A DNA stretch of 64,000 bases from Fistulifera solaris (Eukaryota). The notes beneath the pieces were generated by a model that saw only the letters and a list, made by a program, of their open reading frames with translations, ran no database searches and was not told the origin of the DNA. Below, in pieces: positions 5,742 to 46,592 of this stretch. Position numbers and translations under genes: made by a program. The stretch spans positions 1,054,001 through 1,118,000 of the forward strand of contig AP026125.1 in the NCBI GenBank assembly GCA_030295235.1. The letters run 5' to 3'. The stretch's first letter is position 1, and the number at the start of each line of letters is the position of its first letter.

Positions 5742-6108
5742 TTTGAAATTCAAATTTGAATTGTGTACCGTATACCGTTCTGAGTTCTGAACCAATTCGT
5801 ATCACCAAGTATCAGACAGATTTACTGTAAGCTTTTGTATGTAAGACAGGCCGCAAGGCGCAAGGCGCAGGGATTGGAGATTGGAGATCTGGATCTGGGA
5901 TTTATAACTTGCGACCTTGGGAACTTTCGGCTTCTTTTCTATTTACTATCCCTTAAATAATTAATTCTGTTTACACGACAGTGTACTGCTAAGATCACTA
6001 AGCTTTAATTAATTAACATTTAACAAATACAGTTCCGAGTTCCGACGTTCCGACATCATCAGATGGGCTTTATCAATTTCAAATTTGAATCAGTCACGCA
6101 ACGCGAAA
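5742..6108. promoter_or_regulatory. Candidate CHR (TTTGAA) palindromes and an E2F/SCB-like site upstream of a cyclin
   Basis: AATTCAAATTTGAATT at 5747-5762, TTCAAATTTGAA at 6078-6089, ACGCGAAA at 6101-6108. Confidence 0.35.
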
Positions 6109-6552
6109 CACAGAACACAAAAACCGAACTTGTTCGCTTCTTTCCGTTTGATACTAATGCATGTACCCACATCAAACTTTATTGTATCTTTTAATCCGCA
6201 CTTCGGTAGGTCTATTGATAGATTGATAGTCAGTAAACCAAACTGTCTTGACTAATGTGCTCGTCATCATTTCCGGGTCTGCCGAACGTCATTCTTACTT
6301 CTTACGCGACTGTAATTCCTCCAGCGCGCCACCATCCTCCCTCCAACAAAATCCATTTGCAGACGGCTTCGGGGCAGTGCGTGCAGGGTGCGGAATCCGT
6401 AGAAGCAGTACTGGAGGAATCCGTTCAACCCCGATCGCGCTTTTGCTCGTGATGCTTTCCATGCTCGGCACGCAACGTAGCACATTTTTCCAGCCCACAC
6501 ACTTTTTCCTCGACCGCCGCTTGGATCCATCAGCCTTTTGTTTTGCAATAAC

Positions 6553-7641
6553 ATGATGGAGGCTAGCAAAGCAGTTACTCCTCTCAAATCTGAAGAAGGT
6601 ATGATCATTTTCAGTGCTTCAGAGGCGAGCGGAGAGTATTGCAGCGGTGCCGTCGAAGCTGCGGACCACCTCAAGGTTCTCCTGAAGCAAGAAGTGGGCA
6701 CATATTCCCCGTGCGTCGATTATCTGAATATGGTGCGTCAGCTGCCTAATATTGGCTCGGGTGACTTTGTCAGTGAAGGCTGGAGGAGAAAGCTCTGTGA
6801 ATGGAGCTACGAAGTTGTGGATCACTTTGGTTTCGATCGTGAGGCAGTTAGCATTGCGCTGAACTATCTCGATCGCTACGTGGCGACTAAGGTTCAAGAT
6901 TGCAACCATGTTATCGGTCAAAAAGAATTTCAATTGTTGGCTGTAACATGTCTCTACACGGCCCTCAAGATCCACGGAGAGACTGAGGATCCAAATGGAC
7001 AGCGTCGCAAGCTACGAATCGATGCTTTTGTGGAACTAAGCCGCGGGTTCTTTAGCGTGGATATTATCGAAGAAATGGAGCGTGATATCTTCGCCACTCT
7101 CGACTGGAGAGTTAACCCGCCTACCTGTCTACGATTTGTTTCCTCAATTCTTCGCCTTTGCCCCAAGTGGACTATTGGAGGAATTGGTATAGCGCACTCA
7201 AATTTTATTGGAAGTATCTTTGACGTCTCACGTTACTTGACCGAGCTATCCGTTTGTGTCGCTTCATTCTCTTGCACCTTCAAGACATCAGTGATTGCCT
7301 ATGCCTCTGTCCTTTGCGCAATCGAGGCACTGGAATCGACTCGTCCTCTTCCTTACGCGGTCCGTGTAGCATTTCAAAACAATGTCGCGGATGCAACTGG
7401 TCTAACACCGAATTGTCCTGACATTCTTCACGCCAAAGCTATGGTTAAAGAACTTTGCCCTGATATGTTCAACAAACTTGATGCGTTCGACGATATGCCC
7501 GAAGTTCCTCACGAGATCCCAGACTTTGAAAGTCCCTCCGAGTCCGCGCAACAGAATGGCGGAAAGACTTCTCCAATTTGTGTGATGGATGACGTGAACG
7601 ACTCTCGTCGAAAGCGCATTAAATTCTCTCAAAACAGCTGA
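6553..7641 (+). CDS. Diatom-specific cyclin (dsCYC-like)
   Basis: Cyclin box WRRKLCEWSYEVVDHFGFDREAVSIALNYLDRY, plus FQLLAVTCLYTALK and LDWRVNPPT. Confidence 0.9.
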   Translation: MMEASKAVTPLKSEEGMIIFSASEASGEYCSGAVEAADHLKVLLKQEVGTYSPCVDYLNMVRQLPNIGSGDFVSEGWRRKLCEWSYEVVDHFGFDREAVSIALNYLDRYVATKVQDCNHVIGQKEFQLLAVTCLYTALKIHGETEDPNGQRRKLRIDAFVELSRGFFSVDIIEEMERDIFATLDWRVNPPTCLRFVSSILRLCPKWTIGGIGIAHSNFIGSIFDVSRYLTELSVCVASFSCTFKTSVIAYASVLCAIEALESTRPLPYAVRVAFQNNVADATGLTPNCPDILHAKAMVKELCPDMFNKLDAFDDMPEVPHEIPDFESPSESAQQNGGKTSPICVMDDVNDSRRKRIKFSQNS

Positions 7642-8350
7642 AGCGGCAATACCTTTTCGAAACTTGCCGCATTGTAAATATACTTCCACCTCCCACTTTT
7701 CGAACAGCCCTACAATCACAATGATTGTTCGCAGCTGGTGCTCCGGCATTCTTTTATTGACTATCACGAGAGATATGCTTAACTTCTTTCTAACAATTGT
7801 TAATTTTTCTCCACTCTTTTGTTTAACTAAACGCTTTCGATCAACAATCACTCTAGCTAGAGTGGCCCTCCAGAGTCTTGACTCAACGTGCATTCATTCG
7901 TGACGCACAAGATGGTTCAGACGCCAAGAATCATAAGAATTCTAAGTTCCACTTCCAAGTTCGGAGGCGATGTTTCTGCTTCCTTCATTGCTTACCGTAG
8001 ATCATGGAAAGAGAAATATAAAGTGTCGTGGCGAGTCTCGGGTGTCGGAAATCAGACATAATGACAATTGTCATCCTAGACATACAGACATGTACACCTT
8101 CCCTTGAGCTAAATCGCTTTCCGTGAGTTCCATTTATCATTACCTGGGGATTTGGGAAGCTCATAGAAATGCCGAGGATAAGTTGGGAAGGCAGACAATT
8201 CTTCACTTCTTAGTTACACGTTCGAATAAAGTATGTTATCGTAAGAGAAAGCCACAGACTAAAAAGAAAATTGGAGAGAGACCATCCGGTAATCACATAT
8301 TGGAATGCTTACCGCATTACGACCCAATTCATTCATTCTGTTGGCGAGCG

Positions 8351-9229
8351 ATGATTGACATCAAAGACCAAATCCAAGCTCTTGCCAGGAGAGAGCGTGG
8401 ACCATACCGAACAATCAAAGTAAATCATCTATTTTCCAATTGCAAGCCCAAAACAGATTCAGAAGTTGTAGAAGAGGCTTGGAGGCGCAAACTGTGTGAT
8501 TGGTGTTATGATGTCGTAGATACCTTTGGGCTGGACAGAGAAATAGTTTGTATTGCTTTCAACTACTTCGATCGTTTCAACGCAGTCACAAAACCCAGCA
8601 GATTGGCTGATATGACAAGTTTTCAGTTGCTGGCTGTCACGTGCCTCTTCATTGCACACAAGCTTTATGCTAAAAAAGATGACGGAAGTGGCAAGCTAAC
8701 GATCGATGCTTTCGAGCGCCTCAGCAGAGATATGTTCTGCAAGAAAGACATCGAAAACAAGGAAATGGACGTTTTGCAAACCCTTAACTGGTTCGTGAAC
8801 CCGCCGACCTCTTTAGCTTTTCTTATCTGCTTTTTCGAATTGATTCCAAAACTAGACCGTGAGTTACAAGCCGTATTCGAAGTCGCCCGATACTTATGCG
8901 AAATATCCGTGTGTGTCGGGTCGATTTTTCTTTCCTACAAAGAGTCTACGATCGCCTATGCATCCATCATATGCGGTTTGGAGTCGACCTATTCCTCGCT
9001 TGTGATGCGTGTAACCTCACTCGGAGACTTCTATCACGCCGTTAATTCCGCCGCAAACATGTTACCCTCTGATCCAGAAGTTCTTGATGTTTGTTCTTTC
9101 TTCAAGACCGCTTGTCCAGATTTATTCGACAGTCAGAACCTACTTGATAACGCTATCAATACACCACCTGCCTGCCACAAACAATATCTTGGCTGTTCGC
9201 CCTCTAGTGTCGTAGAACTTAACCGATAA
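8351..9229 (+). CDS. Diatom-specific cyclin (dsCYC-like), tandem paralog
   Basis: WRRKLCDWCYDVVDTFGLDREIVCIAFNYFDRF, FQLLAVTCLFIAHK, LNWFVNPPT. First plausible ATG at 8351. Confidence 0.88.
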   Translation: MIDIKDQIQALARRERGPYRTIKVNHLFSNCKPKTDSEVVEEAWRRKLCDWCYDVVDTFGLDREIVCIAFNYFDRFNAVTKPSRLADMTSFQLLAVTCLFIAHKLYAKKDDGSGKLTIDAFERLSRDMFCKKDIENKEMDVLQTLNWFVNPPTSLAFLICFFELIPKLDRELQAVFEVARYLCEISVCVGSIFLSYKESTIAYASIICGLESTYSSLVMRVTSLGDFYHAVNSAANMLPSDPEVLDVCSFFKTACPDLFDSQNLLDNAINTPPACHKQYLGCSPSSVVELNR

Positions 9230-9287
9230 TCATCGCAACGTCAATTTTATGCTGTATGATAATGTCCCATAACACCAACAGCCTAAA

Positions 9288-11004
9288 TCAAAACTTGTGA
9301 TTCTGCAAAGCATGTCGCGGTACTAAGAAAAATAGGGGCTCGAGCTCGGGCACAAGTTTAGTTAGATCAGTGTTTTCCGGGGGCTGACATTCTTTCGTAT
9401 GCGATGCATCCATGAGATGAGCACCAACCACAAACCAATTAGGCTTGACAAGTCGCAGCCAGACTCTTCCCCACCGAAATCGGTGTAATATGGAAGGCAA
9501 GGCTAGGAAAAGGCGAACGCCGACAAGAACCAACAAGCGAAGTAAAAGAAGACAGCACCATACACCATTACCGTGGTGAAAAGGAACAGAGCGGCAGTAA
9601 AGAGAATAGTCCCGAATAGAAGTTGGGTACTATCATAATTCATTGTGTCCGTCCGTTGGCGTAAGATATTGCGCTTTTTCCCTCGAAACAACCGCCACGA
9701 CGACCGCAATACGAAAAGCTCAACCGAAAATAAAAAGTGGAAAGCCTGGGCGAGCACTTCGAGATGCAGTGTCGTAAGTCGCCAGACGTCACAGAATAGG
9801 GTCAGCATACCTGATCCGCCAGCTAAACCCCCAAGCGACCAAAAGAGAAATGGTTTTCCCGAGACGTATGTACCCAAATCGAAGAACCTGCCGAGAAAGG
9901 TCTCCTGTACATTCAAACATGCTTTAGCCGCTTTCCCCATGGCTATGGTCAGTTTGACGTTAAGCTTGAAGCCGATGGGAAAACTTTCCATCCAATTTAA
10001 CAACATTCTGAGCCAGTGAAAGTGTCTTTCGACTATTGTAGTGAATGCCGCAAATAAGTCTCGTCCAAAACTGGAGAGGACGAAGCACATCAAGACCCCC
10101 AGTAACAAGTCCATAGCCCATCCGATAGTGTCATCCAGCAGACTGATTGATTGGTTCACACTGAAGTAATGCGATTGCACCAATGTGTGGTACTGTTTCT
10201 CACATTTTGTACAATAACCATTGACGCACGTTTTCGCTTGTGATGCGTTGACAAGGGCGCGTAGAATTCGCACAAAGAGCGGGGCGTTCTGCGCATGTTC
10301 TAGAAAGTAGGACTGGAAGGGTAGAGAGACCAAATTGCTCTTTACGGCGTCTGAGAGTCGCTCCAGCGTTTTTTCCTCTACCGATGCTTTTGCGCGGTCA
10401 TCGGGTAAGTTAGATGGTAACACTTGTCCCGTAAGATGAATGGCCTGAATCACTGCATTAGCGTGACTGATTCTTCCCAGAATGTTTTGGGAGAATCGCG
10501 AGTTAACATTAGCGGGTGTGTATAGAACAGCATTCTCAAGCGTCAGAGATTCATCCAGGCAAAGATTGTATACGACAACTTGACGAAAAGGAGTGATAGC
10601 CGAGGATCCTGATGTGGCTATATACACGGGAACTTGTTCCGGAGATACTTGCAGTATCGGCAATAACTTAGTGGCCCTTTGGACTGGCGATGGGTTGCAA
10701 GCGGCGTAGGCCAGCACATCGATGCTCTCAAAACAAAGTTTTCGAGTACACCCCCGCAACCTGTTGGAAGTTTGTTCGGGTCTCGATTACACGAGCAACA
10801 GAAACATGTGTTCGCCCCCAAAAAATCAATTTTTTGAGTCAAATCTTCCAATTTGTCGCAGCCAACAATGCCTGCCACTAACCAGATGTCATCCGAGCAC
10901 CATCCGACGATCCATCCTTCTTCTCTTCCCAAGCCCGATGGCCAAAATATGATACGATCTGCGCCACTTAAGCTCTCCGTCGTTGATTGCTGATAATAAA
11001 TCAT
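9288..11004 (-). CDS. GPI1: GPI-GlcNAc transferase subunit PIG-Q/GPI1, split by apparent frameshifts near 10750 and 9540
   Basis: Gpi1 motifs PIGFKLN and WRLFRGKKRNILRQRTD...QLLFGTILFT. Confidence 0.8.
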
Positions 11005-11079
11005 TTATTGGAACACAATGATAAGTTGTTTTTGACTTTTTAAGGTCGAATATCGTTTCATGGCTCGTATAATAAACGG

Positions 11080-11598
11080 TGTGTGTGTTCGATATGACAA
11101 AATGTCCGGGTACCCCTCTGTCGAAAAATTTCCCTACGAGAGCTACGTGAAATCGCGTAGACATTGGAAGCGTCGAATCTTTGTGATGTTCCATGTTTCA
11201 CTGTCCAACAAAAGTCTAATACTGTTTCATGGCTTGCACAAGCGATGTTGGGCAACGTTTTGTTGACATTGGTGTCCAAACGACGCGAAAGATGGTGTGT
11301 TCCAAATTGGACAATATCCGGGTATCCCCTCTGTCGATAAATTTCCCTACGAGAGCTACGTGAAATCGCGTAGACATTGGAAGCGTCGAAGCTTTGTGAT
11401 GTTCCATGTTTCACTGTCCAACAAAAGTCTAATACTGTTTCATGGCTTGCACAAGCGATGTTGGGCAACGTTTTGTTGACATTGGTGTCCAAACGACGCG
11501 AAAGATGGTGTGTTCCAAATTGGACAATATCCGGGTATCCCCTCTGTCGATAAATTTCCTATGAGAGCTACGTGAAATTACGTAGACATTCGAAGCGT
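11080..11598. repeat. Near-perfect tandem repeat, unit about 213 bp, about 2.3 copies
   Basis: TCCGGGTA(T)CCCCTCTGTCG recurs at 11105, 11317 and 11530 with nearly identical sequence between. Confidence 0.97.
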
Positions 11599-12072
11599 TG
11601 TATTATTCATGGTTCTTATTATTTCAGCAGATTTCAACGATGATGAAGGCATCGATTGACAAAGAGAGACTGCCCTCCGCCTCGGTTAATCATCACGCCG
11701 CAAAATATTCTGCCATACAGGCTTCAATCTACACAAGACTGGATTTTAGTCATGACAACCCTACGATCACTGTTACATAGGAATTTCAACGAAGAGTTGA
11801 CGTTTTATATTATGTTGAAATTTTTTCCAGGCGTTTTTCCCGGAGACGACGTTAAAATTCTGCCTCGCCGTAGGCTCCACGTAGAAACTTGTACTGAGAG
11901 GCAGAATTTTAACGTTCATCCCCGCCACTCGAGATTCGAGGTGCACTTTTGCAAAAACTCGTCCGCTGCCCGTGGTCCGCCGAGCTACGCAAAAAGCAAT
12001 GCAATCCTACCATGTCTTGACATATTAACAAAAGTCAAGATAAGCACTAACTCTTCAATCTTCATTATTACC

Positions 12073-13297
12073 ATGCCAAAAGTAGACACCGCCGCACCTG
12101 TCCCCATGTCGATCGACAGCAACAAGGAAAATGCTCGAAAGAGTACGAACCTGACGTCGTATCAACTCCCTTGGGTAGAAAAATACCGTCCGCGCTCTCT
12201 CGACGACGTCCTTGGCAACTCCGAGACCGTGGAACGTCTTCGGTCAATCGCAAAGGAAGGAAATGTGCCGAATTTAATTTTATGTGGACCACCGGGTACG
12301 GGTAAAACTACCAGCGTCCATGCGCTTGCTCGCGAGCTTTTAGGCAGTGCTTACAAGAATGCTGTTCTTGAGCTCAATGCATCGGATGCTCGTGGAATTG
12401 ATGTAAGTTAGGCGAAGTAAATCGCTCCCGAGAGCCAAAAAGTACTTCTTTTCTGACGTTTTGTCGCTTGTTTCCTTGATAGGTCGTACGAAATCAAATC
12501 AAAAGTTTCGCTATGAACAAAGTAACTCTTCCACCGGGTCGGTAGGTGAATTTTTGCGTTGTTTATCTCTCAACATCAAATCATTGATAGCATCTTAATT
12601 CGTGGTTGTTTTTCACAGACACAAGATCATTATATTGGACGAAGCGGACAGTATGACCAGTGCCGCCCAACAAGCACTCCGACGCACCATGGAATTGTAT
12701 TCGAGTACGACACGCTTTTGCTTGGCCTGCAATGTATCGACAAAAATCATCGAAGCCATTCAGAGTCGCGCAGCGATTCTTCGTTATTCCAGATTATCGA
12801 ACGATGACGTGTTGCAATGCCTATTGAAAGTTTGTCAAGCCGAAGAAGTCGCGTACACGGAGGATGGTTTGGAAGCTTTACTGTTTACGGCGGAAGGAGA
12901 CATGCGCCATGCACTCAACAATCTTCAGGCTTCTTCGTACTTGGCAGCGAGTAGCGGAGGAGGAACTGTCAATCAGAATACTGTGTTCAAGGTTTGTGAT
13001 CAACCCCATCCCAAGATTGTCGGTGACATCATCACATTCTGTTCGAAAGGGAAGACGAAAGAAGCAGCCGATACGATGCGCTCACTGTACAAATCAGGAT
13101 ACTCGGCTAGCGACATTATTGGAACTATTTTCAAAGTAGTCAAGGCCCGAACAGACCTTTCGGAGGGCTTGAAATTGGAGTTCATGCGAGAGATTGGTTT
13201 TACCCACATGAGAATTGCTGATGGGGTGAACTCATTGCTACAATTGGTGGGCCTGATTGCTAGACTATCACAGAAAAGCCAGAGTATGGCGTCGTAG
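12073..13297 (+). CDS. RFC2: Replication factor C small subunit (human RFC2/yeast Rfc4 type); introns 12403-12482 and 12542-12618
   Basis: PWVEKYRP, Walker [19 protein letters not shown], Walker B DEAD. Splicing restores the frame. Confidence 0.93.
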
Positions 13298-13378
13298 AAG
13301 ACATATGTATTCTAAAGTGCCCATTGCTATCATCAAAAAGTTTTTCAGTATTACATACAGCATCGTGGATGGAAAATA

Positions 13379-13969
13379 CTATCTTTCGTAAACCGATTTG
13401 TAATTGGACACATCGTAATCCCTTGTTGCATACTCTGTGACATCGTACTCGGATACTTCGTAATCCTGTCCGAAGGTGCCTTGCGGCCCCGCTGACTTAT
13501 TCACTCGACTGCTGATTGATTCTTTTATTAATTTTTCGTCTCGATCTGAAGATCGATCGGATGTTGTACTACTATTATGGCTCACCAAGTTGTCGAGTTG
13601 CGTACGATTACGTGATAACCTATTGGCTTCGTTGACGGCAGCTCTGGCATAATAATTCTGCGCCCAGACATTAGCGTTGGCTCGTTGAATATCTTCTAAC
13701 TCTTGTTCCGCCGAAATTAGCCCGCGGCGAGTAGCTCGATTAATCACAACCCTTCCGCTGCCTTGAACAGCGGACGGAATGCCATCTTCCCCATTAACAG
13801 CGATAGCGTCTTCGACAATATACCCATATTCCGGTGCGAGGGGGACCGCGTTGACGAGACCCTGCTGGTCAGTCGGAGATATTAATCGCGCTGTCGGCAA
13901 CTCTTCGTCGTTACCAAAAATGTCCGTGAATGTGGCTGCTGCCTCTACAGGAGATTGGGAGCTGGCCAT
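13379..13969 (-). CDS. Hypothetical protein
   Basis: 196-aa ATG-initiated ORF with a C-terminal Y-x-V-x-x-Y repeat. Confidence 0.65.
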   Translation of the reverse strand: MASSQSPVEAAATFTDIFGNDEELPTARLISPTDQQGLVNAVPLAPEYGYIVEDAIAVNGEDGIPSAVQGSGRVVINRATRRGLISAEQELEDIQRANANVWAQNYYARAAVNEANRLSRNRTQLDNLVSHNSSTTSDRSSDRDEKLIKESISSRVNKSAGPQGTFGQDYEVSEYDVTEYATRDYDVSNYKSVYER

Positions 13970-14319
13970 GACTGAATTTTATAGGACAATTAACAACTTG
14001 TGGTTCCTTTTTCTATAGTTCCTTTCGTGTCAAACAAAAAACAAGGAAGGGCGGGGACGAGTCCCGCTTGTCGAATCCCATCTCAATCGTGAAATCGTAC
14101 CGCTCTTCAGAGAGTCCAATCGTATGCTGGTGTGACAGAATTCTTTTTGTTCTCCACGATTGAAATTCGAACCGTTGTGACGCGACAGGTTCGCAAATCC
14201 TTTACTTATTGACATCGCGCTCTCATTTTTCATTTCATTTTGTTCTCATAAATTTCATAAATAAAGCAAATACAGCAATCGACACATACTTTTCACAACC
14301 AAAGCAACAACAAACCACA

Positions 14320-14835: not shown

Positions 14836-15827
14836 CGAGTTTAGCGAGATGCGTAGTTCATAGTGAATAAGTAATGTATAACAAGTAGATAAGCTAGCTT
14901 AAAACGACCTTTTGCTTGTCATCGTTTCATAAACGGGTGAACTATAAGCACGTATCACAAGTAAGGAACACTAGAAGTAGGCGTGTAACAAGCGTGTGGT
15001 GTGGTGTCTTCACGTCTCCAAAACTTCTGGGAGAAATGTGTCTTCAAATGCCCGCAGAAAATTCGAAAAGAGCAACGTTCGCGACTCAGAAGCCACACAT
15101 TCCAGGGAGTAGCCGCAAGGAAGTAGCATTATCTTTTGAAGGCTAAGAAGCGCGTCGTTAGTCGTTAGGCACCTCCTTGTCCTTGTCGTCAGGGTCTACT
15201 TGCGAAAAAGTATTTCGCCACGACTCCACTTCAGTCATGAATAATTTTGTGAAGGAATATCGATTGGTACGTGCGCTTCAAATGATGTGAACAGTCATTG
15301 CAATGTGATTTAATCATCAAAGCAACGAGCCATTTTAGCAAAGGAGCCTTGACTGTATAGCAGTGCGTGGCTCGGAAAGAATAGCGTCATGAACTGGCAT
15401 GCTGTCGTGGAAACAGGTAATCTTCACTCTAGTAGGAGTATAGTAAATACGGATAGCAACAGTAGCAACCATCCTCAAAAAATGAAGCTGAAAGCATTGT
15501 AATCTTGTAAGAGACTAATGAGCTTACCACGACGCAGGCATTGCGTTTAGTTGTATAGATCTAGCTGAAGCAATAATACTGTAAACTGAATGAACGGCGT
15601 GCAGTGGAAAACCAGTACGACTCACAATTTATACTGTACTGCGTATTGTAATGTTGATCGAATTATTATATACTGGTAGGCGATGCGACATCCAAGCTTT
15701 TTTACGACGACGGTGACGAATGAAGAATGAATTGCAAACGAGCGAATAGCAATTCTTTTACTACGTAGCTTGTAAGCATTTCCAAAGGTTAACGTGTTGT
15801 TTGCATATTCCAGTTTATGATAGAAGC

Positions 15828-24711: not shown

Positions 24712-25792
24712 GATGTCGGTTGGGCTTTCCTTTTATCAACTTATCTGCACAGGTAGCGTTGTTCAAAGAATGAATCTAAAAATATTTCTTTCTAGAGAGA
24801 CTACGACGGTGGCAGGGTAACGAGTTTCATGTTTTCGTGTAAAAAAATTGGAAGATCGCGTCCGCAAATAATACTCAGTGTCACTCTGGTTCTCAACTGC
24901 CTATGTAATAAATGACGGCTGACTGACGGACGGTCAAAATTTCAACGCCATCTTCAAATCTGTCCGCTGATGCAATGGAATGATTTCAATCAAAAGATAA
25001 TGAATTACCGGTTTGAACAGGATTCGAACCTGCGAAGGCACAGCCCATTAGCTTTCAAGGCTAACTCCTTAGCCACTCGGACATCAAACCAATGACGGGT
25101 TAAAAAGCAAGTCTCAAAACATAGCATCAAAATAGCGAACGAAATCGTCCGTTGCGAGTTTTTGACCCGATGCGTTGCGTTTTCACGAGAAATCAAATCG
25201 ATGATAAAGTCGGAAGCTAAGCTGTATGCTCCTCTTCGAATGCTGTGCTATGAGAAGAGCGAAAACCTCTTTGTTGGAAAGAATATGGTTGATTGTAGGC
25301 TTTGAACGGGGCTCACAAAATCGTATTGTTGTTGAAAATCAAAAGCACAAGAAGAGAGGGCTATGACCCAGCAGAACGCCAGAATGGTCCGGTAGGATTC
25401 CTGCTTTGCTCAAGCGCCCTTCAAGCCTTCCACGTCAACGGCCACAACGACAAGCTCGTTTTTGAAGAAACAAGTTGCGAAACGGAGTGATGGCTTGAGC
25501 GGACAAGATTTTTATCGGCGCAGAAGGGCGATTTTTCTCGAAAGGGAATTGGATATTGCAGAACGAAGCCTCTCATTGATATATGAGGCAATGTCAGTGG
25601 TTCAACTAATGGCGAAAGAAAATCGGGCAATAAAGCATTTGAAGTGTGCTAAGTGCTTTGACGTGGCTCGCAAAGCCGTCAAGCGTATCAGATCGAGAGT
25701 AGACACAATCGATTCTGCGACAAGAATAATGTGTTGTAGTGGGATCATCTACCGGTAAAAGGAAACCGGGGTGAAGTATTGACACGGAGTAA

Positions 25793-30083: not shown

Positions 30084-31382
30084 CAACAGATGAGAAGTGT
30101 AAACGTGTGTTGTGTTCTTGCTTGAATTGAAAGAGAAGAAGCTGCGTAGACTTCCGTTTTATGAGTGCGTTTGGAGCTGAGGAAATTTCAACGATCGCAT
30201 TCGCCTCGGTGCGGGTGTGTGAAGAATTAGTGCGAAGGAGAACTCAGAACATGGTCGCGAACAAAGAATTCTTTCCAGTTCAATCGGCATGCTGGCTCGC
30301 AGGAACGCGGAGTCGCACATTTAAATCGATTTGATTGGTCCAAACGAGAAACGCAACGAATTCACTCGTCCGTGTCCTACATGTTTCTCTATAGTAGCAG
30401 ACATACGAATGAAAAGACCGTTTTCACTTGTCCCGAAGGCAACAAAACTCCCGATTCCCAACAAAAAGACCGAAGCAAAACGCTTACGTTCGGAGGGAGT
30501 TTGGCATTCAAAAACCTTTTGAAAATGAGCGGTGGAGAGCGAACGAGGGCATCCGGTATACGTAATTAGAGCATGCTACGTGGCATAACGTGTTGCTCTT
30601 CAAAAATATTGCGCGAAATAGATGACGTAGGCTGGAGTCATCGCGGTCATCGTCAGTCGTCAGTTCAGAAAACTAATGCCGTGTTAATAACGTTTTTTTA
30701 TAAAAAAATATAATACTCAGTCGACGCACACGAAACAAAGATTAGTCGGCCTTCCTTTTCAAACATAAGCAAGACGTTAATGATAGACTAGAACTATCCC
30801 TCTAGTTTCAGAGATCTAGTTTTCTAGAGGGCCGCATCCTACGCGCCTCAGAACCTGAATCCACGAGAGAAGCAAACGATTTGTAAGGATTATCGTCGTA
30901 AACGATCAAGTAAAAGAATGCGAGTGTCCGTAGTCCTTCATACCGATGATATTCGCTTTTATAGAGCGATATAATATGTACTTTGAGACTTCGCGGTAAG
31001 AGAAGAATCGTCGTCCAGGTTCATGACTGAAATCCAGTCGTTGACTTGTCTAGAGCCTGCACGTCAGTAATGAAAATTTCGTAATGCCTTGCGAGTAGTC
31101 TATGTAGGGTAAATAGCAAATTTTTCCAATTTAGCACATTCCTACGCAAAGCTTAATTTATATCGGAAACCATACAGTCGAAAGTTTATCATTTTGGCTT
31201 GGGGGTCTGTATTAGGGTGGTTGTGCTGAGATAATTCATTCGCACCGTGTGTCTAGTTTAAACAATTACGCGCCGTGATATCCTAGTACCTTCACTTAAT
31301 TTAAATTATTTAAAAAACACAATGATCTCTTAATTGACTGCCTAAAACTCAGGTTAGTGAAATTGATCTTCTTTCGCTGAAA

Positions 31383-35282: not shown

Positions 35283-35974
35283 TATTTGACTGGTAGATAT
35301 ACTTTAGCGCATGAACAGCGCGTTGACGCCGAATGAATAAATCACTCCATTCTTGAAGGAACGTTGTCGATGTTATTTGCTGCTTGCATCACAGATCACA
35401 AGGCCAATGTTTCCTTTTCATGGCGGCAACCCGCCACATAACCACAACCGCATCATCGCGTCGCGTCGTCGCGTCTCATCCGCTTTCACAAAAGCTCTGC
35501 ATGCTGACGTCGACTATAGATAAGATAGTATGAACAATATGAGTCACGGTCATGCAGTTTGATCACGAGTCTGAAAGAGGGTCCAGTCTGTCCGTGCGTC
35601 CTGAGCGACATTTTTCATACACGCTCCGACATGTCGCATTCTGAAAGTACCGCTCCGAGCACTAGACTACTTATATAGGTTATATCATCAGAATGCCTAC
35701 TTTACTATCCTAGTGTAGAAATCCGTGATTTTTTGCTCCCAAAATGCAAGGGGGTTGCCCATGATTTTTGGCTCGATTTTACCATAGATACATAGTACCG
35801 TAAGTGAATGTTTTTGTTGCCCAATCTTCAAACAAAACGTCCCTCGTAACCTTTTCTTTATCTCCTTCATAGAAAAAGCCGAGAACTCTGCTGTTTTGTC
35901 GACGCTTCGAGTGAGTCGATCGTCGTCCCCGCACAGCACGTCATCTGACCACGTTTTGTCAAGGCATTTCGTTT

Positions 35975-37061
35975 TTGTATTGGCGTCCACGTGCGATGAA
36001 AAGGACATCTGACGAGAAATCCGCTTCATTTCCTTATCGAGATTGTTACCACTTGTTTGCAAGCCACACGACGTATCATTGTGCATTGAACGGTTGCGTT
36101 CCGTGCGCGTACAAGATTGGATGCTTTGATGTTGCGTTGGATAAAGAATTCTGTAAAGCCGCACCAAATCAACGACCCGAGCAGTGTCCTCGGTCTTTGA
36201 GCGAAAAGGGAGAATCGGGAACGCTGGGATATCAGAAGGGGATGAAAATTTTGACCGTTGGGGATGGTGATTTTTCATTTAGTTTAGCACTGGCTCGCAT
36301 CATATCAGGGAATGGTTTAATAGCAACGTCGTATGAATCTAAACAAACATTGATGCAGGTTTACCCTCAAATTGAAGTCACCATGGCCGAACTGGAGAGT
36401 TTGGGTGCAATACTGCACTTTCAGGTGGATGCAACGCGCATACGAGAGACGCTAGATACTGCGAGACCGGGTCTTTACGACCGGATCGTCTGGAATTTCC
36501 CCCTGTCAAGCAGTTGCCAAAGGACGAGACGGACAGAATGAAGAAATGGAGAACAACAAGAAGCTTGTTGCGGATTTCGTTTCTAATGCGAAAGGGCTAA
36601 TGGTGAGAAAAGGTGGACAAATTCATATCAATCACAAAACCAAGGTATGGGAAATGTCAAGGTTGAATTGATTGCTTTCCAATCGTTGCTCATTTTTCTT
36701 TCATCAGCCTCCCTTTAACCAATGGAAAATAGAGGATGTGGTAACGGCATCGTCTACAGACGCTCCTCAACTACACTATTACGGGCGAATTTGTTTCGAT
36801 CGTTGTTTGTTTCCACCATATATACCCCGCAAAGCCTTGGATAAGAAAAGTTTTCCCGTGCACGATGCCTGTACATATATTTTCGGTTTAGACGGTCAAA
36901 GCAATCCTTTATCCGACTCGGTTCACGAATGGGAAGGCTCACAAAATTCAAGCTTGCTTATTAAGGTGAATGAGGAAAGCATCTCGCATATTCGACAATC
37001 CATTCTAACTAGAAAAGACGTTTCCAATCGCATTCATAAGCGGCTAAAGTCAAGATATTAA
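35975..37061 (+). CDS. Bmt5-like 25S rRNA m3U methyltransferase (DUF2431); extra C at 36499-36503, intron 36645-36708
   Basis: ILTVGDGDFSFSLAL, ATSYES, VDATR, DRIVWNFP, HK.KPPFNQW. Confidence 0.85.
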
Positions 37062-37154
37062 TCTCTTTTTAACAAGTATGCCTCCAGTTCTCGGTCTGTC
37101 TTAGCTGGACTTTCGTTTCGATTGCGACATAAAGTCAAGTTGTTCTCCTTGCCA

Positions 37155-39159: not shown

Positions 39160-39421
39160 GTTACGAGAAAAAGGTTCTTTCGCGGTAGGGTATCAGGTTT
39201 TTTTCTTATTAACAGGCTTCTCGTGGCAGTCGCATGTCAAAGATGCGTTGGGGCATCGTTTTGTTTTTCGCATGATCGATGTATTTCAGTTTCACACACG
39301 TGTCGGCGGTCGGCGCGGAGCAGATTTTGACAGGACAACTCTCCACTGTAGAGTACGAAGGAAAAAAGCCGATGAAGTGCCATAAGACAAAGGCGTAGTC
39401 GTACAGGTTTTCGGATCGCTA

Positions 39422-40410
39422 TAATCCGTATTTACTATGCTCCCAAAGTGAAGACGACCTTCTCCAGACTGCATCCCAGTCATGAATCAAATCATTCCGA
39501 GCCACACTGCTACACAAGAAGGGATCTTTCGGCTAACATGGTTCGCTATAATTGCTTATATCACATTGAAATGGTCAATAACATCTTTTGCGACGCACGT
39601 ATCGATCGATTCCGCCAGAAAATAACGGAGAGCCAATTTTTCTTGTATTTACTATACACCGAAAGTGTGATGGTCTCAACTTTGCCACGACTGCAATCCA
39701 GTCATGAAGCATGATGTTCCGATTAGACATGTGACTCCCTCTAAAATTCTGTGGCAGTGAAGTGACTTCCATGGCAAGCTCTCGGCAGTGAAGTGGAAGT
39801 GAAATCACTCCCGTGTCGCACTGAGTATAGTATGTGCTAAACTGTACTCTTGTCAGTCACTTACTCTAGGGACTGCCTCAAGTGCACTAGGGTTTTGACT
39901 TCCTACGTAGCTTTACGTAGGTGTAGTACTTGGCAGTGAACCCTTTTGGCTTGGAAGTGAAGTGAAGTGGAAGTGAAATTTCCTCACGGCAGTGAAGTGG
40001 ACGTCAGCAGTGCAGAAGTCACATGTCTAGTTCCGATCCGCACTGCTACACAACCGACGCTCGTTCCGCTATTGTAAGCGCGAATTGTCGTGGTCACAAT
40101 GCAGTTATCAACAGCAGCATTTTCACTGCACGCCTTCGAATTTTTACTTCGGAAAGCCAGGAGGCTTGCCTCAATCCAAATTTATTATATACCCATAAAT
40201 GTTGTCCGTTTATCTCCACGACTGTTTTCAGTCGTGAATCACTATTTTCCTAATCATAGATTGCCTACCGGACCGCCGTTTCTTCTGCTTGTTAATCCAG
40301 AATGTTTTCATTACAATACAGCATCTTACAGTGTCATGTGCAATGTGTCCCTCAATTCATTTCGTCGATCGATAATGAATGATTGTGGAAATCCTTGTCA
40401 TCAGTATGTA
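39422..40410 (+). repeat. Degenerate tandem array (about 216-222-bp unit, about 3 copies) interrupted by a hAT-like element
   Basis: Palindrome cores at 39464-39484, 39686-39706 and 40217-40236. TTCCGA.CC.CACTGCTACACA follows the first two cores once the insertion is removed. Confidence 0.8.
39724..40029. mobile_element. Non-autonomous hAT-like DNA transposon (306 bp)
   Basis: 13-bp TIRs TAGACATGTGACT / AGTCACATGTCTA; exact 8-bp TSD GTTCCGAT at 39716-39723 and 40030-40037; subterminal GAAGTG/CAGTGAAGTG repeats. Confidence 0.92.
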
Positions 40411-40811
40411 CTAAACCTGGTACACCTGACTTAGGTTTGAAAAGAAGTGGCCTAGTCTATGTCTATGCGAATGATGGGAGCCTTAAACGCATCAAGATTC
40501 CCTCCTTTTCACAGTAATACATACTAATGGACCGATTACATGAATCCAAATGCTGAATTACCTCAGTTTAATGGGTTGATAGTCTAGACAGCCGTGGACG
40601 CTTTTTACCACTTACGTTTCAATAGTAACCAGAGAGTAACTTATAGAACGCAGCAGCAACTGTTGAATGCGATACCATTTTAGCTGTAAACATCCCATGC
40701 TGTAGCCAGCGCGCAAAGCTCAACCGACAAAATAGTCGCAGCAAAAATCTGTTTGAGGCATAGCTATTCCATTTGTTAAAATTTCATGCGAACGTCCCGC
40801 CGTTCCCTAAT

Positions 40812-41114
40812 TCACCGTTTGCCTTTTTTTACCAAAGTCTTTGACTGCACCATCATATCGATCAGAGCCCATACTTGCAACTCTTGGGGCGATTTACAAC
40901 CATCGGAAGCGAGATTCTGTTCACGTTCCAGCGCCTCTAAAGCTTCTTTTCGCACTCGATCACCCACTTCAATGAGTGTTTTATCGAACAAGTCAGTGAA
41001 ACGCTTTGGGGCGCCATTCGGTTTGGCCAGTGCTTCGCCGAATAATGCAGCCAGTCTTTCGCGTCGCGACTCGTCCGTCGGCTCCAGTGAGAGAGAAAGG
41101 ATCAGTTCTTTCAT
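40812..41114 (-). CDS. Hypothetical protein (start may lie further upstream)
   Basis: Helical, protein-like ORF ...LQVWALIDMMVQSKTLVKK. Confidence 0.55.
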   Translation of the reverse strand: MKELILSLSLEPTDESRRERLAALFGEALAKPNGAPKRFTDLFDKTLIEVGDRVRKEALEALEREQNLASDGCKSPQELQVWALIDMMVQSKTLVKKGKR

Positions 41115-41710
41115 ATCTTCTGTTTCTTTTCCGAATCTGACGACTTTGTCAGCAGAAACCGCGCAGGAAGCCTTGTGGCGGCGGGAACTCGAAACGCCAA
41201 TGAATCGTTATCGCAAAAAACGAATGTAAAGCATGCAATTATCACTGATAATCTCATCGTGAAAGTGAATTGGGAATTCGCTATTTATCTTGCGCAGTAG
41301 ATAGTGTCTCTGTATTGAAAGAGAGATTTTACTTAAAAATTTTCGAGAGAATTAAAGAGGATAGCCGTGTATTCGCATTGCCAGTGGGCTCTTCCTCGCA
41401 TGAGAAGATCATCATCTTCAAAAATCTCAAAACAACAAGATCCGCGATGCGGAGGAGAAAAAACCCGCGCTTTAGATTACCAGTATTTACCTTCTCGAAA
41501 CGTCATTCAGTACATTTACTTAACGATTTGGGTACCGTAAGGATGCCATAAATGTTTGCCCCCAACGCCCGCAACGCTTTTCGCGGACATTATAGTGCGA
41601 GACATTTCCTTTTGCATGCCGAAAGAAAAGATCTTACTTGCACGCTTTCAGCGAAAAAAACTTCCATTTCTTGGTTTCGTAGTGCCTTTTGTCAGAAACC
41701 GTAACCGAAT

Positions 41711-43246
41711 ATGGCAGAGCTATTTGAGCCTCAGCCAAAGGAATGGCCGGGAGAGGTTGAGAAAAAATACCAACGCTTTGAAGTTCTTGGAAAAGGTTCG
41801 TTCGGAATGGTTTGGATGTCACGAAGAACCGAAATTCCGGAAGACGAAAATGATGACGAATTTGTGGCGATCAAAGAAATTAAGATCAAAGACGAAAAGA
41901 GCGAAGTGTACGCAGAACGGGAAATTTCAATTCTGTCGGAAATCAAGCATCCGAATATTATCCGCATGATCCGAGCGTATCCTGTTTATAAAGGTTCCCG
42001 AGTCGTGGTGATGCAGCTGGCACGAGGACCCAACCTGCATCAACTTGTGGTCAAGAGGGGAGCGCTCGGACTCCCTCTTGCTCGACTTGTAAGCCGGGAA
42101 CTGATATCGGCTGTCTCGTATCTACACGGAAGAGCGGTTATTCACAGGGATATCAAGCCCAGCAACTGTATACTCGCGTGCAATGCATTGAAACCGACAG
42201 AAAACTACGACTGGACGAGAGATAACGCCATATGGAGCAGTAACGAAGATGCGGAACGTGCAGTAAGAGAAAAGCGATGGAAACTGTACCTTGTAGATTT
42301 TGGCTTTGCACGCGCTTTAGAAAAGGAGGAAATAGACGCACAGACACGTCATCTGCGAAACTCAATTCTTTTCGAAAATGCGCCACCCGCGGAGAAGCCC
42401 CAGCCACCGCAAAGTACAGAAATTCCTACTACCTTTAGGAACATTCGAGACAAAGTAATTGCCGAGGATGATTCAGCGGCTTCAGACGACGAAGCCTTGG
42501 CTCAAATGGTGGAAAATGCAGCGTCGAAAATGAGAAATACGTCCTTTACGCCAACTAACAATATTGAGGACGAGATCATGGGTACTGGAGGCAGGCGGCA
42601 AAGACTTTCCGGTATTTCTATGCAAATTCCTGAGAGTATGCCGAAGAGTAACAAGCGCGTATCTCATGCTCGACAAAACATTCGATCGATGAGTGCTCTG
42701 GGTACAAAAGCGTACGCAGCTCCAGAAATCAGGAAGAAACTCAGACACAAGACAGAAGAAGATCTAGGCAAAGAAAACGCGGCTTTAACAGAATGTGTAG
42801 CTGATTATGGAATGATCGTGGATGCCTATTCAGTGGGCTGGACGCTTCGAGTTGCGATAACTGGTGTCCCACCGAACTTTACTTTGTCCGAATACATGAA
42901 GGAGCGTGAGTCCGTCGTTTTAGACAGTCAAGAGGAAGAAGAAATAGCTTCCTTAGGGTGCTGCTGCTTCTTTTCTGGAGCTGCGCAGCCGCTAGTAAAG
43001 GTTCGCGATCCATCGCAAATTCCTCGTGAAGCAATGCTGTTAATCACCAGTATGACCGAAAAGAAACCAGAGGATCGAATGACCGTTCGGGAAGCTCAGC
43101 TGCATCCTTACATTGCAGGAGGATCAGGGGAAGAATCATACAGTCCTCCTCAAGGTGACATCCCATCTAGCCACGGAGATCCTGTTGTTCCCCTGGTATG
43201 CGCTTCCGCACTTTCAAAGCTGACCATCAAATATCACATGACATAA
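41711..43246 (+). CDS. Ser/Thr protein kinase with a very long activation-segment insert
   Basis: GKGSFG, VAIK, HRDIKPSN, DFG, GTKAYAAPE, DAYSVG. Confidence 0.93.
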   Translation: MAELFEPQPKEWPGEVEKKYQRFEVLGKGSFGMVWMSRRTEIPEDENDDEFVAIKEIKIKDEKSEVYAEREISILSEIKHPNIIRMIRAYPVYKGSRVVVMQLARGPNLHQLVVKRGALGLPLARLVSRELISAVSYLHGRAVIHRDIKPSNCILACNALKPTENYDWTRDNAIWSSNEDAERAVREKRWKLYLVDFGFARALEKEEIDAQTRHLRNSILFENAPPAEKPQPPQSTEIPTTFRNIRDKVIAEDDSAASDDEALAQMVENAASKMRNTSFTPTNNIEDEIMGTGGRRQRLSGISMQIPESMPKSNKRVSHARQNIRSMSALGTKAYAAPEIRKKLRHKTEEDLGKENAALTECVADYGMIVDAYSVGWTLRVAITGVPPNFTLSEYMKERESVVLDSQEEEEIASLGCCCFFSGAAQPLVKVRDPSQIPREAMLLITSMTEKKPEDRMTVREAQLHPYIAGGSGEESYSPPQGDIPSSHGDPVVPLVCASALSKLTIKYHMT

Positions 43247-43621
43247 AATGGATTTCGCAATTCAGCCCAACAAACTTCTCAATGTACTATGATGAGACAA
43301 GGTTCTAGCTAGAATATATGTATAAAATGTGAAAGTGGCGATTTTGAAAAAAGCTATAGTCTAGGCGCCTTATGTAGCCCTAGCGATTTATAATTGTCCG
43401 CGTGCACGCGCGGAGGAAAATTGCACCTCTGGGAACCCGGAAATGAACACGTACGAGAACAGAGCCGATCAATTTGAAAGCCAACCAAAAGAAAAACCGA
43501 AGAATTTGCGATCCTTTCGATTCATTCGATTCATTGCAGACGAGACACTGGAGTAAAATTTTCAACCTAGAATCACTAAGTTTCTTCGTTGCCCAGTCTG
43601 TCATTTTACTCAATATCAACC

Positions 43622-45151
43622 ATGGTAGCGAAGAAACAAAAGACGAAGAAAAGCAAGAATGTTGAAGAAGAGGAAGTCGACTATGCCGCAGTCGCTGACC
43701 AGTTTGCCGACCTTTCCGACCACGATAGCGTCGAAGAGGGCGACGACGACGATGATGACGATGAAAACGATGAGTCAGCCAGTGGGGATAGTGGTGATTC
43801 AAATGATGAAAACGAGAATAGCGGAAGTGATGACGATAAAGAGGATTCGGAAGACCACGATGATTCGGAAGAGCACGATGATTCGGAAGGAGACGAAGAG
43901 GACGATGATGGCGAAGAGGACAACATCGCGAGGAAAATTACAACGAACTCGTTTGCTGGCCCAGAACCATGTTCTTTCGATATGCATAATTTGTTAGCGA
44001 TCAACTCTCACCAAATGGACACATCGAAAATGTACATTAAGAAAGCAGGAAAATACAATGATGAAGAAGACATAACAATACCACCTGAATCGTTGGAGCT
44101 TGCCGTGAACGAGAAGTATCTTTTAGAGAAGGCTGCTTCCGGTTGCACCCAGCTCATTGCTGCCCTTTGGCAACTTCCGATCGAGTCTAGTGACGTCGGC
44201 CCCATGGTATCCTTGCCAATTCATGATGGAAGTAAAATACCTCGTCAGCTGGTACGTTTATGCTCACTTTCTCGATGCTCTTTCCTCTTGGTTCAACACC
44301 TCTAACGCCATTATACAGCCCCTCCACCTCCCAAAAAGGAAACAAAATGGGAAAAGTTTGCCAAACTAAGAGGCATTTCACTGAACAAGGAAAAGAGATC
44401 ACAAAAGGTGTTCGATGAAGCTACTGGAGAATGGATGTATCGACATGGTTATCGAAAGGCGAATGATGACACGAAAGAGTGGCCTATTATGGAAGTCAAG
44501 GGTAATGACGACCCTTACGCTGATCCTTGGGAAAAGCAGCGCGAAGAGAAGCGTTCTCGCAAGGATAAGAATATGGAAAGTCGTATGCGAAATGAAGAGC
44601 GCGCTGGCAATCTCGTCAAAGGCACGACGAACAAACTTCTGAAAAACCGAGATAAAGCCCGCATGGCCGGGAAGGCCGGTGGTGATCTCGATCGCTACAA
44701 CGTTCCACCTTCCGGTGTTCCAGTAGACTTGAAACCGACAAAAGGCAGCGGTGATATCAAGAGTATGAAACGTGGAAAAGCGTCCATCACGAACGCTTTA
44801 TTGGCTACCCAGCGTTCTACGGCATCGCTTGGAAACTTTGACAAGATGTTGGAAGGAGAACCAGAGCGGAAGAAGAATCATATCGGTGCAAAGAAGCGCA
44901 AATACGAAGGAAGTACGGATAAGGCGGTCATTTCCACTGAGGCTGAACGGGCTATGAAAGTTTTCAAGCACGTAGTTGATGGAGGCGGTGCGCAGAAAGA
45001 GAAAGCTCGACTGAAGGGCCGTCTGGCGAAGGGAGAAACGGCGTACGACTATGAATTCAACGACGGGTTGGGTCCTTCAACCTTTCAAAAGAAGAAAGGG
45101 CGTGCTGCAGCTGGCAAGATGAAGAAAATGACCAAGAAGCGCATCAAGTAA
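43622..45151 (+). CDS. RRS1: Ribosome biogenesis regulator Rrs1; intron 44252-44318, missing C at 44319-44322
   Basis: IPRQL-PPPPK.ETKWEKFAK.RGI, FDE..GEW.YRHGY, STASLGNFD. Confidence 0.9.
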
Positions 45152-45238
45152 GGCAATAGCGTTTAAGTCAAAGTTTGAGTCTCTAAATTAACTTCATGAT
45201 CTTTTGATGTACTAATATGATGCAACTAATTTAGACTA

Positions 45239-45659
45239 TTATTTCAGTATTTTCTCCCATGTCATGATCTCGGGATGACGTTCGAGTATTTCGCAAGGTA
45301 GTGCGCTAGCATCATTCATTGCTTCAATGGTATCGAAATCACCGACAAACTCTACGCTCTCCTCGCCTAACAAGAAAAATTGAGGGTAGGTTCCCCTTCG
45401 ACCACTGATGCTGAACAATTTATTTCGGCTAACAGAAACAAAGGCGTAAGAGGCCACGTCCAAGACGGCAGGATGCAAGCGTTCAATACACTTACGTCTC
45501 ACGATTTTCCGGATCAGCTCCATCAATGGTTTCGTACGGTATACCTCGTCCTTCTAAAAGATGCATGGCTCGCTCCTGATTTTGGCGTTGCGCTCTGTTC
45601 ATGCCCAGTCCAGTCATCAGCATTACCACGCATTTTCGATGTTGTTCGCTCTTCGCCAT
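45239..45659 (-). CDS. SH3BGR/glutaredoxin-like small protein; intron 45429-45495
   Basis: Spliced product MAKSEQ...LLEGRGIPYETIDG...RNKLFSISG...YPQFF...FVGDFDTIE. Confidence 0.75.
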
Positions 45660-45930
45660 TGTAAATTATTGTTTCCAGATGGGGTGGTTGATAAAACGAG
45701 TCAAGTAGTATGAGAACGAAAGATTAATGAATGTTGTGGTGTAAATCGTGTTGTATCTCTCCGAGCTGTTCTCGAAACGTCTCTTCACCTTTTCGTAACA
45801 AAAAGAGTGGCCTGTGGCCGTCGCAAGAAATAGATAACAGGGAGCATTGATTTTACTATTGCCGATTGGGTGTACGGGCGCGCAGCAACGGAACTAAATC
45901 GAGCCGGCATGTTTTCACTCATTCTTGCCT

Positions 45931-46592
45931 TTCTATTTCTATACTACGTACCAGTATATTGCGAAATGTACTCTCATGACCAAAAATCCGATACCAATCC
46001 CGCCCAAACGAGAGCCTACGTCCTTAGTGTCGGCTGCATTTGCAAATGATCGACTTGTAAGTGTACCCAAATGTTTGTTCTAGAATTGCTGATACTCTGA
46101 TATTGCAAATCAAACGAAAAGGCAATTACTTGTGCTGCATGCACAAAAGACAATAGTTTTCGTTCCATTGTTTTCTTTTTAAAATAAAAAATCCAGTCAT
46201 GGCTGCCGTAAACCAACATTCTGGGGGATAGTAAAAGCATGCGCATCACGAAATGAGAGCCCTGTCGGCTGGAAAAGCAATTGATTGACTTGTAAGTGTA
46301 GCTGGTATTTACTCTAGTCTTGTAAAACATTGATCTTCCAAATAAAACGCAAAGGCTATATTTTTGTGCTGCACACAGAAAAGGATTGTTATCGTCTCAA
46401 TCCAGTCATGAGTGCCTGAATCTACACTCTGGGCGATAGTAAAAAGTATGCTCATCACGAAATGAGAGCATTGTTGGCTGGAAAAGCAATCGATTGACTT
46501 GTAAGTTTAGCTGATAATTACCAATAGTCTTTTATTAAAATATTTCGATATTCCAAACAAACGCTAAAGGCTTTATCTTGTGCTGCACGCAC
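45931..46592 (+). repeat. Degenerate tandem array, unit about 209-235 bp, about 3 copies
   Basis: GACTTGTAAGT at about 46052, 46287 and 46496; TTGTGCTGCA three times; ATCCAGTCATG at 46191 and 46400. Confidence 0.88.

Follow-up and report, generated by a model that had tools for sequence, protein, structure and literature searches.

A family of intergenic repeats built around an imperfect palindrome in Fistulifera solaris, possibly decayed copies of a small non-autonomous mobile element

Diatom DNA transposons that are moved by recombinases or rolling-circle enzymes are poorly catalogued. Here we describe non-coding, palindrome-containing repeats in a stretch of 64,000 nucleotides of nuclear DNA from Fistulifera solaris (assembly GCA_030295235.1, contig AP026125.1, positions 1,054,001 to 1,118,000 of the forward strand; hereafter the window, numbered from its first letter), which appear from comparison of their sequences to form an unnamed interspersed and tandem repeat family. 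Helitron-derived non-autonomous elements (Helitron1 and Helitron2/Helentron/HINE-DINE) resemble this family in having short non-coding units, a conserved short palindrome, head-to-tail rows, apparently a start with TC after A, and copies with a common start and varying extent. According to the excerpts of PMC5148889, Helitrons begin with 5'-TC after a host A and carry a hairpin 10-12 nt before a 3'-CTRR. Tandem repeat or satellite DNA is likewise composed of head-to-tail copies of one unit, as are the three units at 39426-40395 of the window, and dispersed euchromatic satellite and minisatellite families share with these repeats non-coding tandem units, short dyad symmetry, a low copy number per locus and a symmetry without evidence of selection. 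The present family differs from them in having single and truncated copies with the same start phase at separate loci and in both orientations, and because of these same-phase copies satellite-style local slippage or unequal exchange is inadequate as an account of it. The units also differ from MITEs (miniature inverted-repeat transposable elements), since they show neither terminal inverted repeats nor a target-site duplication, whereas a MITE inserted in one of them has both, and from tRNA-derived short interspersed elements (SINEs), since they lack a tRNA-like head, an A-rich or repeat tail and a target duplication. With an even chance of being right, we favor the reading that the repeats are decayed copies of one non-coding, non-autonomous mobile repeat of ~215 bp with defined ends, unclassified at present, which was amplified in tandem locally.

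The initial annotation of the window, made from its letters, had described a dispersed family built on a palindrome and present in six large intergenic gaps. We found that the palindrome is one box within a non-coding unit of ~215 bp, and that four full units (U1, U2, U3 and U15) are homologous end to end with 51-73% identity (along the alignment, 73% for U15-U1, 61% for U1-U2 and 52% for U1-U3). Three of them form a head-to-tail row and U15 stands alone on the minus strand. The units, together with the MITE that interrupts the row, are as follows.

39426..39640, plus strand: U1, full unit, with TATTTACTAT at 39429 and the core CCAGACTG-catcc-CAGTCATG at 39464-39484; matched by blastn to 15244-15454 and used as a training row for nhmmer
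39644..39723, plus strand: U2 head, with TATTTACTAT at 39646 and the core CACGACTG-caatc-CAGTCATG at 39686-39706, an exact match of the pattern; stops at the MITE insertion point
39724..40029, no strand assigned: MITE, not a family member, 306 bp inside U2, its terminal inverted repeats perfect over 13 bp and its 8-bp target duplication GTTCCGAT lying at 39716-39723 and 40030-40037
40038..40176, plus strand: U2 tail (blastn of 39495-39720 versus 40031-40250, 60.3% over 229 nt, E 1.3e-6)
40176..40395, plus strand: U3, full unit and the most diverged, with the only perfect palindrome, CACGACTG-tttt-CAGTCGTG, at 40217-40236
15239..15452, minus strand: U15, single full unit, with TATTTACTAT at 15440-15449 and a degenerate core at 15387-15410

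The unit starts with ATCCGTATTTACTAT and ends at about ...AAAATAAY. Its better-kept half contains, in order, TATTTACTAT, ~30 nt, the imperfect palindrome CCACGACTG-N5-CAGTCATGAA, 11 nt, TCCGAG and then CACTGCTACAC; this half, between TATTTACTAT and CACTGCTACAC, is more conserved than the remainder of the unit, and TCCGAG begins exactly 11 nt past the right arm in all four full units. Pairwise identity among these units was 0.81 in the left arm, 0.94 in the right arm, 0.81 in the TATTTACTAT block, 0.92 in TTCCGA and 0.77 in CACTGCTACAC. The arms had been regarded as the best-conserved part, and although they are not uniquely so, the loop (0.43) and the whole unit (0.56) do score lower. Conservation is clustered in boxes: when the alignment columns were shuffled 5000 times, 190 trials reached the observed maximum and 71 the observed variance. 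At 39k the period is 218-222 bp, the second spacing being 217 after subtraction of the 306-bp MITE and its 8-bp duplication, and the spacings at 46k are 235 and 209 bp. A fourth unit after U3, which had been a candidate by eye at 40393-40470, was unsupported on testing, and a coding role was rejected because indels from one unit to another interrupt the reading frames that start at the right-arm ATG. Upstream of U15, a marginal match containing TTTCCACTGCACGCCGTTC (p 0.018) might represent a further degenerate unit.

The homology underlying these units is strong. By blastn, 15244-15454 is homologous to the reverse complement of 39424-39623 (72.8% over 213 nt, E 1e-27), which extends the match formerly reported between 15354-15454 and 39424-39515. 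When the whole window was compared with itself, this pair of U15 and U1 was the only non-coding repeat pair whose members are not adjacent. The heads of U1 and U2 also matched (39428-39500 versus 39645-39722, 70.9% over 79 nt, E 6.7e-5). If up to two mismatches are allowed among the 16 arm positions, the core CACGACTG-N4-6-CAGTCATG is found at six places (11734, 15219, 39464, 39686 and 40217, and on the minus strand 31022), corresponding to eight strand-counted hits, while 40 dinucleotide shuffles gave a strand-counted mean of 0.05 and a maximum of 2. A seventh core (15387-15410, minus strand) contains an insertion of one base and was detected only through the homology of the whole unit. The flanks recur as well: TATTTACTAT was found four times (5940, 15440 on the minus strand, 39429 and 39646) against a mean of 0.04 in 100 shuffles, and CACTGYTAYA four times (11768, 15356 on the minus strand, 39505 and 40041) against a shuffle mean of 0.25. 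In addition, the reverse complement of 11707-11756 aligned with 31021-31071 at a score of 22, compared with 9.1 +/- 1.5 and a maximum of 15 in 200 shuffles. The recurrence of the core, the homology of its flanks and the match between 11.7k and 31.0k, all put forward in the initial annotation, therefore hold, and its coordinates were correct to within 1-2 bases.

Besides the full units, four shorter relics, at 5.9k, 11.7k, 15.2k and 31.0k, retain the palindrome end only.

5937..5987, plus strand: relic with TATTTACTAT (an exact 10-mer), 24 nt and CTGTTTaCACGACAG; right arm lost
11702..11787, plus strand: relic with the core CAAGACTG-gattt-TAGTCATG at 11734-11754 and CACTGTTACA at 11768
15213..15248, plus strand: relic with the core CACGACTC-cactt-CAGTCATG at 15219-15239, opposite in orientation to U15 and adjoining its end; without the 30-nt spacer
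30985..31077, minus strand: relic with the core AACGACTG-gattt-CAGTCATG at 31022-31042 and ~30 nt upstream

An nhmmer profile of the units, when run on the window, recovered the 15.2k relic (13.0 bits, E 0.0014, compared with a best of 6.0 bits in 10 shuffles) and the 31.0k relic (11.4 bits, E 0.004). In pairwise alignments, the 15.2k relic gave z 9.9 against the U2 head, with none of 300 shuffles as good, and the 31.0k relic gave z 7.0 against the U2 head and z 8.5 against the 11.7k relic. The 11.7k relic aligned locally with U1 over 85 nt (z 4.7) and the 5.9k relic aligned with U15 (z 4.2), again with none of 300 shuffles as good in either case. A second profile, built from the heads of all eight copies, detected no additional site within the window.

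These comparisons with shuffled controls, which had been named beforehand as the check that could refute the family, bear directly on whether short motifs in AT-rich intergenic DNA resemble each other by chance. The 46k half-sites and the 11.7k core, when taken alone, score within the shuffle range, as chance resemblance would have it; six consensus matches against 0.05, the 213-nt homology at E 1e-27 and relic z values of 4.2-9.9 speak against it. Chance is refuted for five of the six gaps, and we give it next to no probability as an account of the family. Membership in six gaps accordingly stands statistically for five, and the evidence is weaker for 46k.

Three roles had been proposed for the palindrome, namely a protein-binding or recombination site, a hairpin processing signal of a non-coding RNA array, and a part of eroded rolling-circle units. 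When stem pairing was scored over the seven cores, 46 of 56 cells were paired and none of the eight pairs had changed on both sides, so the suggested examination of arm covariation yielded no compensatory change. Pair 6-23 is a C/A mismatch in six of the seven cores, and four of the eight pairs depart through unpaired cells only. Folding of eight sites as single-stranded DNA gave the palindrome stem in five (-2.1 to -8.8 kcal/mol) and no stem in three, and only the U3 hairpin (-8.8 kcal/mol, 0 of 200 shuffles as good) beat all shuffles. The alifold consensus of the four units was -4.9 kcal/mol with a covariation term of -0.25, and no shared structure was found besides the hairpin. The one Rfam hit to pass the gathering threshold was a tRNA located elsewhere in the window, and within the gaps the top hits had E 1.9-9.6; the snoZ266 match (E 1.9) was discarded because it extends into the MITE. 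ARAGORN detected no tRNA-like part of the unit and found only a tRNA-Ser at 25008-25091, and strings resembling a box A or C/D boxes, noticed by eye, are not conserved among the units. The hairpin processing signal is thus disfavored, and the unit is not a structured RNA or a selected hairpin. Since the sequence of each arm is kept while the pairing is not, the palindrome is most likely a protein recognition site, and the protein-binding or recombination role is the viable and preferred one. It would then consist of two inverted half-sites, GACTG and CAGTC, lying 5 bp apart.

The opposite strand requires separate consideration, because there the two recurrent mismatches become G-U pairs. Folded as RNA, five of the seven sites on this strand reach -8.8 to -14.1 kcal/mol, and 0-2 of 200 shuffles do as well (the U2 fold on the unit strand, by comparison, was -6.2). 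Some pairs of a long interspersed element (LINE) and a SINE share conserved 3'-tail stem-loops, which the family resembles in having a hairpin near one constant end, truncation from the other end, and G-U pairs allowed on one strand. Accordingly, when read on the opposite strand, the repeat might be a small retroposon or an RNA gene, whose 3' tail would be the hairpin followed ~30 nt on by AUAGUAAAUA and whose copies would be 5'-truncated as after target-primed reverse transcription; the retention of the palindrome end in all four partial copies fits with this. On the other hand, no poly-A or simple-repeat tail, target duplication or tRNA-like part was found on the units and no reverse transcriptase partner in the window, copy-specific changes disrupt the stem on both strands without any pair changed on both sides, and retroposons do not usually form head-to-tail rows of whole units. 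The G-U pattern may equally follow from two G-to-A changes inherited from one master copy. We regard this RNA-level alternative as quite unlikely. Contigs of runs X3 and X4, which we guess to be RNA, are absent over 39340-41340, 30669-31335 and 46010-46676, and such blanks are evidence in neither direction; on neighboring genes the contigs of these runs show RNA-like behavior with intron-like joints and poly-T ends, and the RNA contig of the allantoicase gene stops ~860 nt from the 31.0k copy.

Besides the homology along whole units, the box-wise conservation, the broken frames, the lack of an Rfam match and the arms kept in sequence rather than in pairing, several observations support the favored reading of a mobile, non-autonomous repeat. 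First, U15 and the three-unit row share the same start phase, and their ends lie within ~20 nt of the same phase. Second, the flanks of U15 and those of the row are unlike each other (z 2.8, with the best shuffle exceeding the observed score; p 0.18-0.86). Third, identity to U1 is higher for U15 (73%) than for the neighbors of U1 in the row, U2 (61%) and U3 (52%), which indicates that the single copy arose after the row had diverged. Fourth, all four partial copies retain the palindrome end, and no body-only relic rises above the shuffle range. Finally, the MITE with its intact target duplication inside U2 was counted as evidence of age. Under this reading, the unit would have been copied into new intergenic sites by a protein recognizing the palindrome half, and the copying would have taken place on DNA, through a recombinase or an enzyme of the rolling-circle type whose gene would lie at another place in the genome. 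Whole units in rows could have been formed by repeated insertion beside an existing copy or by insertion of a multimer, and may have been reshaped later by unequal crossing-over, and most copies would now be in neutral erosion.

Contigs from the DNA run X2 and from run X1, aligned to the window at 80% likeness, were compared at the 39k row. Five X2 contigs match from 39467, at the left-arm GACTG of U1, onward, while their upstream parts are unlike the window and alike among themselves (agreement 0.63). Contigs of both runs join 39490 to 40041 and one X1 contig joins 39449 to 39676, connecting heads that resemble U1 with tails that resemble U2; joints with a side shorter than 30 are often derived from repeats, and one side here comprises 24 letters. 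The depth of the bin 39340-40006 is 2-3 times that of its neighbors, a bin which also contains the MITE and whose depth is not a copy number. Together, these observations suggest further related units, in a different arrangement, in the second subgenome or elsewhere. As for the MITE itself, it contains internal GGCAGTGAAGTG repeats and a central 8-4-8 palindrome, and the X2 contig depth of ~145 inside it, compared with ~36 nearby, indicates that it is probably multi-copy.

Here, we need to consider several points that weigh against a mobile element. Terminal inverted repeats were not supported in the four units when the 5' end was compared with the reverse complement of the 3' end (p 0.20, 0.55, 0.026 and 0.99), and their matches lie at no shared position. 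No target-site duplication of at least 6 nt surrounds U15 or the 39k row, the units have no poly-A or A-rich tail, and no CTRR was found 10-12 nt after the hairpin in any of the four units. Transposon-type domains were sought in 46 of the 47 open reading frames (ORFs) of the window with at least 150 aa and in one additional ORF of 131 aa, and none was found; in the same set of frames there was also no RepHel or tyrosine recombinase, which had been suggested as a possible linked partner. The relics were detected via the palindrome end, which biases the truncation pattern. All copies read fall within 41 kb of one chromosome, a distribution compatible with local ectopic duplication, and the copy number elsewhere is based on contig tables alone. 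Finally, selection for a host function could be the cause of the box-wise conservation instead.

The last point leads to a host cis-regulatory module, in which the palindrome would bind a dimeric transcription factor, TATTTACTAT would be a TATA-like box ~40 nt upstream, the boxes would be retained through selection in gaps with promoters, and the repeat would merely have spread the site. Such a module would be consistent with conserved boxes at fixed spacing between variable spacers, with arm sequences kept without selection for pairing, and with the location of every copy in a gap that holds at least one gene start; the 11.7k copy lies at the first ATG of an ORF for a replication-factor-C (RFC) subunit, and the 5.9k copy lies 600 bp upstream of a cyclin gene. 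However, nearly every large gap of this compact genome holds a promoter, so that location carries little weight. The distance to gene starts varies from 0 to ~2200 bp in both orientations, the neighboring genes have unrelated functions (allantoicase, tRNA methyltransferase, lipoyl synthase, kinase), and copies decay through deletions that remove arms, as at 5.9k and 46k. A full-text literature search for the left-arm octamer together with diatom found no paper on the motif and no named family. Taken together, a regulatory module seems unlikely to us as an explanation of the repeat. A start-codon role for the palindrome was also rejected, as the 11.7k copy is the only one that coincides with the first ATG of an ORF.

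The RFC-subunit gene contains at least two exons, 11752-12411 and 12653-13297. Its first in-frame ATG, at 11752, is inside the palindrome core of the 11.7k relic, ~140 codons before the first domain match, and because of this distance the true start may be further downstream. The cyclin genes at 6777-7140 and 8475-8824 are neighboring paralogues whose DNA is 60% alike over 367 nt.

The third proposed role, that of eroded tandem units of a Helitron- or Helentron-type rolling-circle element, would make the palindrome a termination hairpin and the rows tandem insertions, which are on record for Helitrons in the excerpts of PMC5148889. The homology starts at A|TCC in all three units that have this segment (U1, U15 and U3), with the boundary placed to within +/-5 nt and that of U3 internal to the row, and the copies have a common start and differing extent. 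However, the four letters ending 11 nt past the hairpin are TCAT, ATGT, TCTT and ATTT, none of which is CTRR, and the hairpin lies ~40 nt from the unit start rather than near a 3' end as in Helitron1, with homology running 130-150 nt further. Compared with Helitron2, Helentron and HINE elements, the units lack both an asymmetric terminal inverted repeat and a second terminal hairpin, there being one palindrome per unit. The proposal is right in that the repeat units are eroded, while a CTRR after the hairpin, a terminal inverted repeat and, among the frames searched, a RepHel ORF were not found, and we consider a Helitron-type origin very unlikely.

A Crypton-type recombinase element, which would show one short crossover sequence at both of its junctions and host DNA beyond, was considered as well. 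GAAGAC is present once in U1 (39450-39455) and GAAGAT once in U15 at the aligned place, 8 nt before the left arm, a 6-mer match that has a chance of ~1 in 10 per unit and is a lead rather than support. The family differs from Cryptons in that its units are 215 bp long and encode nothing, and in that the homology between U1 and U15 continues for 26 nt past GAAGAY, where host DNA would be expected; a recombinase for a Crypton was not found in the ORFs searched as above.

The 46k half-sites of the initial annotation belong to a tandem array of their own.

46028..46610, plus strand: array and possible distant relative, units of 235, 209 and ~139 bp that are ~73% alike, with AATCCAGTCATG at 46190-46201 and 46399-46410

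When aligned with the U2 head, unit B of this array outscored all 300 shuffles (z 5.1), and with the whole U2 it gave z 3.9 (p 0.004); against the family profile, the units were within noise (E 0.12-7). It resembles the U2 core minus ~17 nt, and the next unit retains the left-arm-like CACGACGG instead. These alignments are suggestive of a possible distant relative of the palindrome family. In one X2 contig, 46144 is connected to 46625 through 38 letters of other sequence, a joint that points to another form of the locus, in the other subgenome or haplotype, with ~480 bp less of the array. Next to it, a nested fold-back element occupies 46678-47109, with arms 46725-46830 and 46912-47017 that are 100% complementary and outer arms of 29 nt that are 97% complementary; an X2 contig passes from 46669 to 47153 through 40 letters of other sequence, which indicates another form of the locus without the fold-back element.

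A young tandem array is located at 11083-11603, upstream of the RFC-subunit gene, where 2.4 units of 213 bp are 95-99% alike and stop 130 bp before the 11.7k relic. It was rejected as a relative of the family because z was below 1 in all eight tests, and only the period is shared. Three arrays in the 64-kb window that are unrelated in sequence, at 11.1k, 39k and 46k, have periods of 209-222 bp in common.

A more specific form of the mobile-element reading can be proposed, in which an undescribed small diatom mobile element would have its recognition end in the ~100-nt palindrome half and would be moved by an HUH-type or tyrosine-recombinase enzyme via a circular or single-stranded intermediate that lays whole units head to tail. 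This form is speculative and we put its probability low; it might explain the period of ~210-220 bp common to the three unrelated arrays.

With regard to novelty, the excerpts of the F. solaris MinION preprint mention other uncharacterized intergenic repeats only. Metagenome matches to CCACGACTG-N4-5-CAGTCRTGAA were limited to three loci of 58-61% GC whose flanks have no homology with the unit or the window, and were dismissed as chance hits in bacteria. If the mobile-element reading is true, the repeats add one more species-specific unnamed family to the F. solaris repeat library, and they could matter more if the defined ends and whole-unit rows mark a small element moved by a recombinase or rolling-circle enzyme. 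The two subgenomes of the allopolyploid F. solaris would allow a direct comparison of filled and empty sites. Moreover, the copies lie in promoter-containing gaps of an oil-producing strain that serves for engineering, in which factor binding, if any, would be relevant to promoter design.

The window has about one gene per 1.5-2 kb, as eukaryotic nuclear DNA, and its genes include cyclins, the RFC subunit, HSP20, a tRNA methyltransferase, allantoicase, a kinase and lipoyl synthase. Three of its proteins are identical in every letter to entries of public collections, and the 90% clusters of two of them include members named as Fistulifera solaris (GAX24351.1, GAX24363.1). Between the 39k row and the kinase, in a gap for which the ORF list is empty, the minus strand contains at 40812-41207 a protein-like open frame of 131 aa with no Pfam match, which may be a small unrecognized gene. 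A high-copy stretch was observed at ~35563-35772, where the bin 35338-36004 has a depth of 205 in X1 and 286 in X2 compared with ~20-40 nearby, and where the loose ends of 20-32 contigs fall at 35563 and further ones at 35613-35772; this stretch is probably a dispersed repeat unrelated to the palindrome family.

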